A stretch of DNA of 7,620 bases from a virus. Taxonomy: Duplodnaviria; Heunggongvirae; Uroviricota; Caudoviricetes. Where the stretch lies: IMG/VR virus record IMGVR_UViG_2667528065_000006, one strand, 5' to 3'. Under the pieces are notes generated by a model that did no database searches, was not told the origin of the DNA, and saw nothing but the letters and a program-made list of their open reading frames with translations. The position numbers were made by a program, and so were the translations under genes. Every line of letters starts with the position of its first letter. Within the stretch, counting starts at the first letter, position 1. Positions 5,381-7,476 of this stretch are shown in pieces.

Positions 5381-5403
5381 AAAGAAATTATTTTTAATGG
5401 GGG
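5381..5403. repeat. Proximal copy of an imperfect ~23-bp direct repeat flanking ybcK
   Basis: aaagaaattatttttaatggggg (5381-5403) against aaacaaattatttttaatgtggt (7454-7476): a 15-nt exact core aaattatttttaatg, 20/23 identical overall, same orientation, 2073 bp apart. Confidence 0.7.
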
Positions 5404-5684
5404 CGTGACCAGCCTCTCGGTGCTCAGATACTTAATGAAGTGGAGTGGCATTCAGGCAAGAGGTTAACATCACCTGTTCGCCATAACCAAGCACGTGCAC
5501 AAAGTTTGTTATCAGTGAATTGTTTTGTGATTGGGTATTGTTGAGCTACTAGAGCAAGAATGCCAACATCCAGTGGCAGTGCCTATAGTAAAACTATAGC
5601 TCAGGGCGCTTCGTTCAAGATAGTTAATATCATATTAGTCACTTTACTTTCATACCATAGCACGGTTGAAAAAGTGATTATTAC

Positions 5685-7211
5685 TCAAAAATAAATCTCA
5701 CCATCAACCATATATTTAAGAGTACTTATCGCCTGCTGGGCGGATATTACTTTCATTAAAGGATAGTGTTTAAAAACAATGCCATTCATAAAATAGATAT
5801 CACAGGTTTTATTATCTGTATTAATTATAATTTTTTCGAATATTTTATAGGCAAGTGTACGACATAGCTCTCGCCCATTTTTACTGGTTAAATCAATAGC
5901 ATGAAAATCACCAAGTGAACTCACCCCTTTACTCTTCAAAGTTTTTAATGATACCGAAGCCCTTCGTAATTCCTTATCTAATAGTCTTATTTTCTCTGCT
6001 ATAGCGGTAACTTCAGGCGCGACAGACAATGCAACGATTAAATTATTAATTTTCATCTGAAGCTCAATAATTTTTAACTCTAAAGTTTCATTAGCATCTT
6101 TCTTGTTTTCAACTGGTTGAATTTTGCTACAATTAAAAAGCAATTCATTAATGATATTATAATCAACCAAATCTCTTTTTATTGATGGTCTGTCACATCG
6201 ATGTAATCTTCTCATCGGACAAACATAATAGCCATGCAAACTTCCAGATACCGCATGAACAATCATGGTATTACCACAAGCCTCACACTTCATAACTGTT
6301 CGAAGTAGATTTATTAGCATAGGATTCTTGCTACTATTGCTAATACCAAAAGGTGCCAACCGAATTTCCTGTACAGCGTAAAACAAATCATCTGATATGA
6401 CTCTGGGATAATAGCCAGCGATTTCACTTATCCCTTTCCCTCTTGCACGATATGAAGGTACGCATATACCTATCAGAGCTTTATTCGCTAATAATTTTTC
6501 AATTACAGAAGGTCCCCATGCACTTTCTTTTCCTGAGAAATTCTTTACAGCATGATCATTTAAATACTTGGCTATTGCATTCAATGAGCGCCTTTCCATC
6601 CTGAGTTTAAAAATTAGCTCAATAGTTTTCACCCTGTCGGGGTCTGGAACAAAAGCCGTTCTTTTGTCATCCAATGAGAGCCATCTCGGACAAGAAGCCG
6701 TCATAATCGTGCCTGACTCCAGTGCATCCTGCCGTTTTTTCTTCCATGATAATTTAACCCGACTTGACTTTATCTCGCTTTCTTCATTTGCCCTTTGTGC
6801 TATAAGTATGGCTTTTATTAATGAATATGGCTCATTCAATGAGTCAATATTATAGACTGTATTATCGCAAAGAGTTATAACATCAATACCGTGATTCAAA
6901 ATCAATTTCAGACGCTCAATCGCTTCACCGACTTTTTCTCTTGAAAGTCTGTCCAGACTTTCAACTAACAATGTAGTCCCTGGCAATATATAACCATGTT
7001 CTATAGCATCTAAAAATTCCGAAAAAGCTCCTGATTGTGCATGCTTTCCATTGAATGCGCTTAACCCCAAATCTTCATACGTTACGGTATCAAGGTAATA
7101 ATCACTATTTACCTTTAGCCATTCAGTAATAAGCCTTCTCTGGCGGTTTAATGAATCACCAGACATCTGACCTGGTGATGAAAATCGCATATATGCTATG
7201 GCTTTTTTCAT
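5685..7211 (-). CDS. ybcK: Large serine recombinase (resolvase/invertase N-terminal catalytic domain, recombinase domain, zinc ribbon), 508 aa; DLP12 YbcK-like
   Basis: N-terminus AIAYMRFSSPGQ...SLNRQ carries the serine-recombinase catalytic motif. A Cys cluster CEACGN...YYVCP forms a zinc ribbon, with a coiled-coil-like C-terminal region. SD AGGTG lies 5 nt upstream of the ATG at 7211. Confidence 0.9.
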   Translation of the reverse strand: MKKAIAYMRFSSPGQMSGDSLNRQRRLITEWLKVNSDYYLDTVTYEDLGLSAFNGKHAQSGAFSEFLDAIEHGYILPGTTLLVESLDRLSREKVGEAIERLKLILNHGIDVITLCDNTVYNIDSLNEPYSLIKAILIAQRANEESEIKSSRVKLSWKKKRQDALESGTIMTASCPRWLSLDDKRTAFVPDPDRVKTIELIFKLRMERRSLNAIAKYLNDHAVKNFSGKESAWGPSVIEKLLANKALIGICVPSYRARGKGISEIAGYYPRVISDDLFYAVQEIRLAPFGISNSSKNPMLINLLRTVMKCEACGNTMIVHAVSGSLHGYYVCPMRRLHRCDRPSIKRDLVDYNIINELLFNCSKIQPVENKKDANETLELKIIELQMKINNLIVALSVAPEVTAIAEKIRLLDKELRRASVSLKTLKSKGVSSLGDFHAIDLTSKNGRELCRTLAYKIFEKIIINTDNKTCDIYFMNGIVFKHYPLMKVISAQQAISTLKYMVDGEIYF

Positions 7212-7390
7212 GGTGACACCTGCTAAAGTATGCTTTTATAAACCTTAGTGGTGAGATATGATTTTTGTTTAATTTTTATTTAAAAAGACAATTAAGGTCA
7301 CATTATCTTGAATATACAACAATAATCGCATTGCAATTTTCTTACACCATAATCTTGAAAGCACAAAAGAATGAATAAAAACTAAAGACA

Positions 7391-7435
7391 TTAACAAAAA
7401 GCATAAAACGAGGCCCATATAAATATACGAGCCTC
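7391..7435 (-). terminator. Candidate terminator downstream of emrE (minus strand)
   Basis: Imperfect hairpin gaggc...gcctc (7410-7435) with an AT-rich inner stem. On the minus strand it is followed by gttttatgctttttgtt. It lies about 33 nt downstream of the emrE stop. Confidence 0.4.
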
Positions 7436-7453
7436 CATATTTTAGTCGTTTAA

Positions 7454-7476
7454 AAACAAATTATTTTTAATGTGGT
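7454..7476. repeat. Distal copy of the imperfect ~23-bp direct repeat flanking ybcK; overlaps the emrE stop codon
   Basis: aaacaaattatttttaatgtggt (7454-7476); see the partner at 5381-5403. Confidence 0.7.

Follow-up and report, generated by a model that had tools for sequence, protein, structure and literature searches.

A direct repeat around the serine recombinase gene ybcK as the probable scar of recombination between two lambda-like phage lineages

The imperfect direct repeat that brackets the large serine recombinase gene ybcK in this prophage DNA is most probably the scar of a recombination between two related lambda-like phages, one copy being the leftover tail of a second emrE gene; we put the probability of this reading, which rests on comparison of sequences, at about 0.85. 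The window, by which is meant the whole stretch of 7,620 nucleotides that was analysed, would thus be chimeric. To the left of the first copy it matches phages in which emrE abuts an alpha/beta-hydrolase gene, and from 5405 rightwards it matches a lineage that carries a P22AR_C-type antirepressor-like gene beside ybcK.

Extent and content of the repeat

The two copies read aaagaaattatttttaatggggg at 5381-5403 (copy 1) and aaacaaattatttttaatgtggt at 7454-7476 (copy 2), and they share the exact 15-mer AAATTATTTTTAATG at 5385-5399 and 7458-7472, on the same strand and offset by 2073 bp. Direct reading of the sequence thus confirmed the original prediction of an imperfect repeat with a 15-nt exact core around ybcK. 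Between the copies lie ybcK, ylcJ and the remnant of a pseudogene (about 5405-5573). A repeat search of the window places the core within a 52-nt direct repeat of 77 % identity (5351-5402 against 7424-7475), the top dispersed direct repeat of the window (family D2); beyond the core the copies are merely 77 % identical.

Features of the window that bear on the origin of the repeat
Feature	Position	Strand	Evidence or remark
Alpha/beta-hydrolase (esterase) gene	4328..5335	+	Pfam BD-FAE, Abhydrolase_3; PHROG phrog_3341 esterase
T1, predicted intrinsic terminator of the orphan emrE flank	5340..5361	-	scan 5361->5340, 9 pairs, tail CTTTTTACAG
UTR1, orphan emrE 3' trailer, in copy 1	5362..5393	-	100 % identical to the L014/L015 emrE-hydrolase trailer
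15-nt core, copy 1	5385..5399		9 nt of trailer, relic stop codon, relic His codon
Putative recombination junction GGGGC	5400..5404		either parent possible as source of the bases
Truncated P22AR_C-type antirepressor-like pseudogene	5405..5573	-	82-87 % identical to the intact L005, L016 and L017 genes
ybcK, large serine recombinase, 508 aa	5685..7211	-	Pfam domains; phrog_95 integrase; ybcK in UPEC132 annotation
ylcJ, small ORF, 49 aa	7269..7418	-	Pfam PF23688 YlcJ, E = 1.3e-29
T2, predicted intrinsic terminator of resident emrE	7410..7435	-	scan 7435->7410, 11 pairs, tail GTTTTATGCT
UTR2, resident emrE trailer, with stop and last codons (copy 2)	7436..7475	-	core at 7458-7472
emrE, SMR efflux transporter	7467..7620	-	tblastn with EmrE; RefSeq annotation of UPEC132; 3' part only, remainder beyond window end

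The core is 87 % A+T, and a lone exact 15-mer repeat would be borderline in a 7.6-kb window as AT-rich as this one, so that a chance match deserves mention. The extended repeat, however, has an ungapped +1/-1 score of 28, whereas 60 simulations of the window under a first-order Markov model gave 15.3 +/- 1.1, with 20 as the maximum. At one mismatch or fewer, the 15-mer occurs at 24 emrE ends and 17 copy-1 junctions and at no other site in 349 kb of fetched related loci, and the suggestion that it might be a frequent AT-rich motif is set aside on this ground. Homology is in any case shown directly by the empty-site genomes described below; chance is already refuted as an explanation, and its likelihood is negligible.

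The repeat unit corresponds to the 3' end of emrE and is made up of codon His110, the stop codon, a trailer of about 30 nt and a terminator. As had been noted, copy 2 overlaps the emrE stop codon, which lies at 7467-7469 on the minus strand. The accompanying view of copy 1 as a displaced emrE 3' end stands in refined form: the similarity leaves the core on the side opposite emrE, taking in the 3' trailer and the terminator, and does not enter coding sequence. At most two to three codons of the second emrE are left in copy 1, with the relic stop codon at 5394-5396 (TAA, minus strand) and the relic His codon at 5397-5399. The trailer of copy 1 is 77 % identical to that of the resident gene.

In a pattern scan, each copy has a predicted minus-strand intrinsic terminator, a GC-rich hairpin with a U-tract after it on the transcribed strand. 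The two terminators lie equally far from the stop codon, which is real in copy 2 and a relic in copy 1. T1 consists of a perfect GC-rich stem and then CTTTTT on the minus strand, beginning 5 nt past the hydrolase stop codon; its RNA fold has an energy of -21.8 kcal/mol (z = -3.0), and that of T2 an energy of -19.3 kcal/mol (z = -4.2). An Rfam search of the whole window matched no family. Copy 2 would still terminate emrE, and copy 1 probably now terminates leftward transcription leaving ybcK, thereby separating ybcK from the hydrolase gene, which is convergent with it.

Parental arrangements and the chimeric junction

The hydrolase gene, terminator and convergent emrE are found uninterrupted in two E. 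coli genomes, one cryptic Escherichia species and four IMG/VR contigs. In these loci, designated G type (L010, L014, L015 and L018-L021), the hydrolase gene is contiguous with emrE. The two E. coli genomes (L014 and L015) have the order ybcN-hyp-hydrolase-emrE-ren-P, a prophage context matching that of the window; L010 comes from another species, Escherichia sp. MOD1-EC7003, where the uninterrupted hydrolase gene, T1 and emrE are about 95 % identical and have a different context. Each uninterrupted prophage has the repeat only once; between the hydrolase stop codon and the core it matches copy 1 at 100 % identity, and an intact emrE follows. The comparison with emrE genomes lacking ybcK that had been proposed as a check was thus carried out, and the empty site does carry one repeat copy. 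This single-copy empty site supports the part of the original prediction that took the repeat for a junction scar, left by a rearrangement in which the recombinase module took part.

The second parental arrangement, designated C type, is represented by L005, L016, L017 and about 43 of 80 viral loci and is the commonest. In it the antirepressor-like ORF is intact, and in PHROG this intact homologue falls to the anti-repressor families phrog_245 and phrog_377. The window, which is of the arrangement designated A, has a frameshifted stump of this ORF, cut by the junction, that retains the 5' half only and bears a 5-nt deletion and an in-frame stop.

Closest relatives change abruptly across the junction, and both parental arrangements are present in related phages. 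From 5336 to 5399 the window is 100 % identical to the G lineage, and over the 600 nt to the left of the core A and G loci show 3-11 differences. Over the 600 nt to the right, A loci differ from G at 19-23 positions and from C-type loci at 0-5. The first diagnostic SNP, at window position 7488, lies 16 nt past the core. A site-by-site comparison finds the C/D-lineage allele there in all six A loci and the other allele in all six G loci, and from that position on the right flank of the single-copy empty sites has a different allele set (6/6 loci); the left flank matches. Homology to the empty site stops at 5399-5402, and homology to the antirepressor-like gene of the ybcK lineage begins at about 5405.

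These observations suggest the following course of events. Two DLP12-like lambdoid phage lineages bear emrE with diverged 3' flanks. In the G lineage emrE is convergent with the alpha/beta-hydrolase gene, with T1 common to both, and in the C lineage it is followed by T2, ylcJ, ybcK and the antirepressor-like gene. Arrangement A is then most probably a G x C recombinant of single origin. Its G part would run from ybcN through the hydrolase gene, T1 and the trailer to the stop and His codons; its C part would start inside the antirepressor-like gene and continue through ybcK, ylcJ, T2, emrE and ren. The left joint, at 5400-5404, would be an illegitimate junction that removed the G-lineage emrE bar its last codons and truncated the antirepressor-like gene, and the other crossover would lie over 600 bp further right, in phage DNA that both lineages share. 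The repeat itself would be a by-product, homologous but diverged emrE tails having been brought 2073 bp apart.

A single origin is indicated by the spacing of the copies, which is exactly 2073 bp in all 12 A-type loci that hold both. The region 5336-5420 is 100 % identical among eight cultured phages. The ybcK-ylcJ-emrE block is present in 1400 of 5426 E. coli genomes; copy 1 accompanies it in 172-174 of these 1400 ybcK carriers, some 88 % being without a second copy. Among 80 viral ybcK loci, two cores are confined to the hydrolase class and copy 1 is missing from every non-hydrolase arrangement; the K-12, O157 and antirepressor-type arrangements have one core copy or none. An exact-pattern scan for the core with the relic codons, AAATTATTTTTAATGGGGGCGTGA, in one genome per species gave no matches, and the arrangement is absent from these species representatives. 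At the K-12 ybcK/ybcL boundary, a scan allowing up to three mismatches found no core-like copy; TTATTATTAGT at that boundary resembles TTATTTTTAAT by eye, and after the scan the resemblance was taken as AT-rich chance. Strain c1-17, which has ylcJ-emrE without ybcK, reflects an IS1-associated deletion and is uninformative.

The empty-site prophages might instead be secondary, produced from arrangement A by deletion between the copies through the 15-nt core, either by homologous recombination or by a Red-type process acting on short homology. The predicted product, in which emrE comes directly after the left part of copy 1, is exactly what the empty-site prophages contain, and the phages encode Bet and Exo-type recombination functions. 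Nevertheless, all six empty-site loci compared have distinct emrE and ren alleles where the A loci match the C and D lineages, and one empty-site cassette resides in another species, its identity and context being those given above for L010. Moreover, copy 1 is derivable only from an adjacency of hydrolase and emrE genes, so that the uninterrupted arrangement must be the older. Secondary deletion is accordingly highly improbable.

Still less can be said for a local duplication of the emrE 3' flank, or a transposon target-site duplication, with subsequent divergence. Such an origin would account for two copies in the same orientation around a DNA recombinase gene. However, the copies are no more than 77 % alike outside the core, and the surrounding DNA is 96-100 % identical between lineages, so their divergence predates their juxtaposition and the repeat is not a duplication made at insertion. 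Duplication is already contradicted by the flank of the separate G lineage, to which copy 1 is 100 % identical. A target-site duplication should consist of short, initially identical repeats accompanied by terminal inverted repeats; a unit of 52-66 nt is far too long, and a repeat search found no terminal inverted repeats at 5400-5410 or 7440-7475. An origin of this sort is extremely unlikely.

If recombination between the G and C lineages is the preferred reading, the position of its left joint can be fixed to within 5 nt. When E. coli genomes were searched with the antirepressor remnant (5396-5690), no parent closer than 84-87 % identity came to light outside the A class. Because even the remnant's best matches reach only 82-87 % identity, the 5-nt junction is not resolvable to the base; it would fall at 5399/5400 if the parent had GGGGCGTGACC within an intact antirepressor gene. 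Microhomology at the junction between CGTGAC in emrE and GTGACC at 5405-5410 was considered and found unconvincing, since copy 1 would need an extra 6-nt deletion and substitutions.

YbcK and the recombination-site reading

The YbcK protein has the Resolvase (PF00239), Recombinase (PF07508) and Zn_ribbon_recom (PF13408) domains, all above gathering scores, and is by sequence a seemingly intact large serine recombinase. A sequence search of the PDB with YbcK gave no match, and literature searches for ybcK and for a serine recombinase with lambdoid and emrE found nothing on a recombination function. The presence of a large serine recombinase inside a prophage with a tyrosine integrase is a separate question, on which the repeat gives no handle.

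It has to be considered whether the copies are the attL and attR sites of a minimal element moved by YbcK. A circle of about 2.07 kb, containing ybcK, ylcJ and att, would have integrated at a target overlapping the emrE stop codon of a G-type prophage and could be excised again. Filled and empty arrangements do both exist, the empty one with a single copy; YbcK has all three domains of large serine recombinases, together with an N-terminal RFSS motif read by eye; and another rearrangement boundary lies close to the emrE stop region. Recombination sites would, however, be expected to accompany the recombinase gene, and about 88 % of ybcK carriers lack copy 1. The 52-nt similarity is one-sided and includes a terminator, a pattern of shared ancestry unlike that of short, dyad-symmetric half-sites. 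Sites of this class would be short, some 40-50 bp, and imperfectly dyad-symmetric about a 2-bp crossover; no inverted repeat was found around the core of copy 1, and in copy 2 only a 10-nt AT-rich palindrome (7450-7470).

The ends of the supposed element also speak against this scheme. A mobile unit should have constant natural ends, but the left end at 5405 falls inside the antirepressor-like ORF and so is a truncated phage gene; in other arrangements the conserved ybcK block ends at 5619 or 5646. A recombinase-borne mobile unit with the repeats at its ends is thus unsupported. Furthermore, the emrE and ren genes beside copy 2 are not of the empty-site lineage, and the A loci all have one and the same spacing and junction, with no sign of repeated mobility. 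Both the assignment of the copies as attL and attR and the integration of a re-excisable circle are very unlikely. The original prediction had also suggested that the two repeats might be recombination sites; this proposal is not upheld, given the rarity of copy 1 among ybcK carriers and the flank alleles, which are those of the ybcK lineage.

The position of the joint weighs against the scar reading. The lost emrE was broken no more than about 8 nt from its stop codon, where an illegitimate break at random would be unlikely to fall (a chance of roughly 8 in 333 for a break confined to the gene). An independent arrangement boundary, at 7459/7460, separates ybcK-less emrE-ybcL islets from K-12 and lies about 13-18 nt away, so that the emrE stop region looks like a recurrent breakpoint. 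It is conceivable, if very improbable, that the stop and terminator region of emrE is a preferred or pseudo-target of YbcK, which would have made the 5400-5404 junction and perhaps also the boundary at about 7459. If this were true, ybcK-ylcJ would form a minimal cassette for a recombinase that shuffles the cargo of the lambdoid nin region. As to attL and attR, the spacing of 13-18 nt between these breakpoints means that they do not share one crossover dinucleotide.

Comparison with known systems

The probable scar is ordinary phage mosaicism, and the consequence of recognising it is mainly housekeeping: a candidate pair of recombination sites is removed. What is gained is a clean worked example, in which both parental arrangements and the recombinant occur among sequenced E. 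coli prophages and cultured phages and the event can be placed to within a few nucleotides. The hydrolase and emrE genes emerge as a two-gene accessory cassette, and ybcK-ylcJ-emrE as a conserved block that roughly one E. coli genome in four carries.

Mosaic novel-joint junctions of lambdoid phages and 'moron' cassettes of the nin region have reportedly been described by Juhala and colleagues in 2000 (the Hendrix/Hatfull model), and 'boundary sequences' of lambdoid phages are said to have been treated by Clark and colleagues in 2001. As at such joints, the affiliation of the window flips abruptly between two phage lineages near the end of a gene. Like nin-region morons, emrE, the hydrolase gene and ybcK have their own terminators and lie between the replication gene P/ren and ninB/ybcN, a slot that holds many alternative cargoes, as in lambdoid mosaics generally. 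Unlike other mosaic joints, the window has kept a recognisable orphan gene tail with its terminator, which makes the event reconstructable, and both of its parental arrangements are still found in nature.

The placement of a recombinase gene between direct repeats, with a one-copy empty arrangement, recalls the attL/attR pairs of phiC31, Bxb1, A118, SPbeta, Tn4451/TnpX and SCCmec/Ccr. In contrast to those pairs, the repeat of the window does not travel with the gene, is long and one-sided, and includes a terminator; unlike large-serine-recombinase elements, the segment has an end that truncates a gene, and its flank alleles show a much larger exchange. A stop codon, trailer and terminator without their gene also resemble the relic gene ends and orphan terminators of decaying prophages. 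The orphan emrE tail differs from such relics in that it occurs as well in the fully functional cultured phages Perceval, 4A7 and Lambda_4C10, where, as in the window, its sequence suggests a terminator that probably still works between convergent genes.

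The emrE-end repeat and its setting

The window corresponds to the nin/late-regulation region of an E. coli prophage of the DLP12-like lambdoid type. Its sequence matches UPEC132 at 100% over 3800-7620, and the cultured temperate phage Perceval at ~98% over the 540-7620 stretch that was compared. An imperfect direct repeat bracketing ybcK had been proposed from sequence alone. One copy lies beside the hydrolase gene (copy 1, core 5385-5399) and another at the end of emrE (copy 2, core 7458-7472). The repeat is present exactly as described and in fact extends to 52 nt at 77% identity (5351-5402 and 7424-7475). 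Among the dispersed direct repeats of the window it ranks first, with a score of 28 against 15.3 ± 1.1 (maximum 20) in 60 simulated sequences. Its 15-nt exact core is not a common motif; in the 349 kb of related loci scanned it is confined to emrE ends or the copy-1 junction.

Features of the window
Feature	Position	Strand	Remarks
essD	18-233	minus	
nmpC/ompC-like porin	657-1772	plus	
quuD, ylcG, rusA, ybcO, ninE, ybcN	about 1961-3844	minus	
alpha/beta-hydrolase	4328-5335	plus	
T1 hairpin (copy 1)	5361 to 5340	minus	terminator scan; in register with T2
antirepressor-like pseudogene stump	5405-5573	minus	P22AR_C-type; 5-nt deletion and in-frame stop
ybcK	5685-7211	minus	
ylcJ	7269-7418	minus	
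T2 hairpin (copy 2)	7435 to 7410	minus	terminator scan; in register with T1
emrE	from 7467, past window end	minus	

Read along the minus (emrE) strand, each copy comprises a His codon, TAA, a trailer of ~30 nt, a GC-rich hairpin and a T-tract, and the hairpins T1 and T2 fold better than shuffled controls (z = -3.0 and -4.2, respectively). This order, together with two minus-strand hairpins in register, identifies the repeat unit as the 3' end of the emrE transcription unit. What copy 1 retains of emrE itself is limited to the stop codon at 5394-5396 and the His codon at 5397-5399, perhaps with a Pro codon as well. The next five nucleotides, 5400-5404 (GGGGC), can be assigned to neither side of the joint; the 5' half of an antirepressor-like gene follows from ~5405 onward.

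Other features of the window were recorded in passing. Two inverted-repeat pairs within and around ybcK, 5669-5684/7095-7110 (16 nt, 94%) and 5687-5703/7249-7265 (17 nt, 82% complementary), are near what chance alone would give in a 7.6-kb AT-rich window. The 3' end of the porin gene carries an in-frame tandem duplication (1693-1758; 33 nt, 2 copies, 97% identical) that is missing in UPEC132, Perceval, and the ST131-type locus, and the essD-porin spacer holds two short tandem repeats, at 311-360 and 474-521 (25 nt, twice; 23 nt at period 25, twice). In the comparison with UPEC132, positions 1-499 align with one gap and 500-539 are unaligned. Relative to UPEC132 the window has three insertions, one of 1 nt near 2507 (within ylcG), a second of 1 nt near 2626, and a third of 8 nt at 2767-2774 (within rusA), which leave rusA as a frameshifted ORF of 102 aa (2631-2939; region 2500-2940); these indels reflect either prophage decay or assembly errors.

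Gene arrangements of the slot

Seven arrangements of this prophage slot are found. That of the window, A, reads ybcN-hyp-hydrolase-[copy 1]-antirepressor stump-ybcK-ylcJ-[copy 2]-emrE-ren. Of the 5426 complete E. coli genomes searched, 172-174 have it, as do 14 IMG/VR contigs and seven cultured phages (Perceval, 4A7, Lambda_4C10, D2, 1W, 3W, PhiR47_2; eight database records); the phages are 100% identical over 5336-5420. Arrangement B (K-12) is ybcM-ybcL-ybcK-ylcJ-emrE, and D (O157:H7) is ybcN-hyp-ybcK-ylcJ-emrE. In C, the most frequent class among 80 viral ybcK loci, a variable gene and an intact antirepressor-like gene precede ybcK-ylcJ-emrE. In E, ybcM-ybcL-emrE adjoins fliE and ybcK is absent. 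In F (ST131 and others, ~508 genomes) the hydrolase is followed by an adhesin fragment, and homology to the window ends at 5339.

Several of these loci have peculiarities of their own. In ST131-type prophages (E. coli AREA_504, locus L001, 5537-9540, and ~508 others) an adhesin/inverse-autotransporter pseudogene fragment starts 4 nt past the hydrolase stop; an IS3 element also follows the hydrolase, and T1 and emrE are absent. The emrE-ybcL-ybcM islet by fliE in E. coli SD134209 (L002, 2482-4341), which lacks ybcK, has a diverged emrE allele (~92% nucleotide identity); Nissle 1917, an O111:H8 strain, and several others carry a similarly diverged allele with no adjoining ybcK match. The K-12 ybcK-ybcL spacer (L004, ~4330-4385) contains a 13-nt perfect inverted repeat, AAAATACGTGACA and TGTCACGTATTTT, 24 nt apart, adjoined by a terminator-like plus-strand hairpin; this is seen in the K-12 arrangement only.

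The decisive arrangement is the seventh, G, in which hydrolase and emrE converge on T1 with nothing between them. Comparison with genomes that have emrE but lack ybcK had been suggested, and in G a single repeat copy does mark the empty site: the sequence is 100% identical to copy 1 from the hydrolase stop codon through the core end, and then continues into intact emrE. G occurs in four IMG/VR contigs, in E. coli F467 and Rb-50, where the prophage context is exactly that of the window, and in Escherichia sp. MOD1-EC7003 (L010), in the att-lambda area, flanked by chromosomal bio/ybh genes and a tyrosine integrase. The L010 two-gene cassette (4723-6402, among bioA/bioB/ybhC/ybhJ) is ~94-95% identical to the window; no homology to the prophage extends beyond it, which is what a self-contained accessory cassette, or the remnant of a prophage, would show.

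Origin of the second copy

Outside the core the copies are only 77% identical, compared with 96-100% for the surrounding DNA between lineages. This rules out a duplication made at insertion and indicates that old, diverged homologues have been brought together. The flanks point the same way. Over 600 nt on the left side of the core, A and G differ at 3-11 positions; over 600 nt on the right side they differ at 19-23, whereas A differs from C-type loci at 0-5. The first diagnostic site, 16 nt past the core (7488), has the C/D-lineage base in six of six A loci compared base by base and the other base in six of six G loci, and most further emrE and ren sites at which G differs from A follow the same pattern in these loci. 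These alleles show A to be a chimera; its emrE and ren therefore came with ybcK from a C-like parent, and a G-like parent gave only the DNA left of 5400. The differing right-flank alleles also rule out the observed G prophages as deletion derivatives of A. Since copy 1 could arise only from hydrolase-emrE adjacency, G predates A.

Most likely, A is the product of recombination between a G-type and a C-type phage. One crossover, at 5400-5404, would have been illegitimate, fusing what was left of the G-type emrE, its last codons, with the inside of the C-type antirepressor-like gene. The second would have occurred in shared DNA, either >600 bp rightward, if the exchange was unequal, or in the ybcN region, if it was a replacement. 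In the product, copy 2 would be the native tail of the retained C-lineage emrE, and copy 1 a G-lineage tail orphaned from its gene. Copy 1 sits today where the hydrolase and ybcK genes converge, and probably still terminates leftward transcription.

The first part of the original prediction, a rearrangement scar with a displaced emrE end, has support that is now detailed; the alternative part, a pair of recombination sites, finds none. The left joint of A cuts a gene that C has intact, and the conserved ybcK block ends at 5646 in B, at 5619 in D, and at yet another point in C and A, so that the bracketed segment lacks constant natural ends. Nor does the second copy travel with ybcK: the ybcK-ylcJ-emrE block is present in 1400 of the 5426 E. 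coli genomes and copy 1 in only 172-174, and two cores are limited to the hydrolase class among the 80 viral loci. The spacing is exactly 2073 bp in every A locus holding both copies, and the copy-1 junction sequence is identical in every A locus recovered. These constants indicate a single origin of A, and in neither is there any sign of repeated mobility across those loci.

YbcK and the emrE-stop boundary

YbcK has all three large-serine-recombinase domains and matches a PHROG integrase family; sequence search found no close solved structure, and the literature searched held nothing on a recombination role. Its gene, always linked to ylcJ-emrE, is carried by a quarter of E. coli genomes and by functional phages. 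Whether YbcK acts in recombination is a question on which the repeat has no bearing.

The lost emrE is cut at most ~8 nt from its stop codon, the boundary between E and B/A lies at ~7459/7460, 13-18 nt from that cut, and the identity of G and C trailers falls at the left edge of the core; the emrE stop region is therefore a recurrent module boundary. This recurrence leaves a slight chance that the recombinase played a part. The breakpoints lie at differing positions, however, and a serine-recombinase crossover would need one. A search for dyad symmetry found none around the core of copy 1 and, in copy 2, only a 10-nt AT-rich palindrome. Module boundaries at gene ends are usual in lambdoid mosaics, in which selection keeps genes intact. 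The repeat is best read as a recombination scar rather than a pair of sites, a case of ordinary lambdoid mosaicism.
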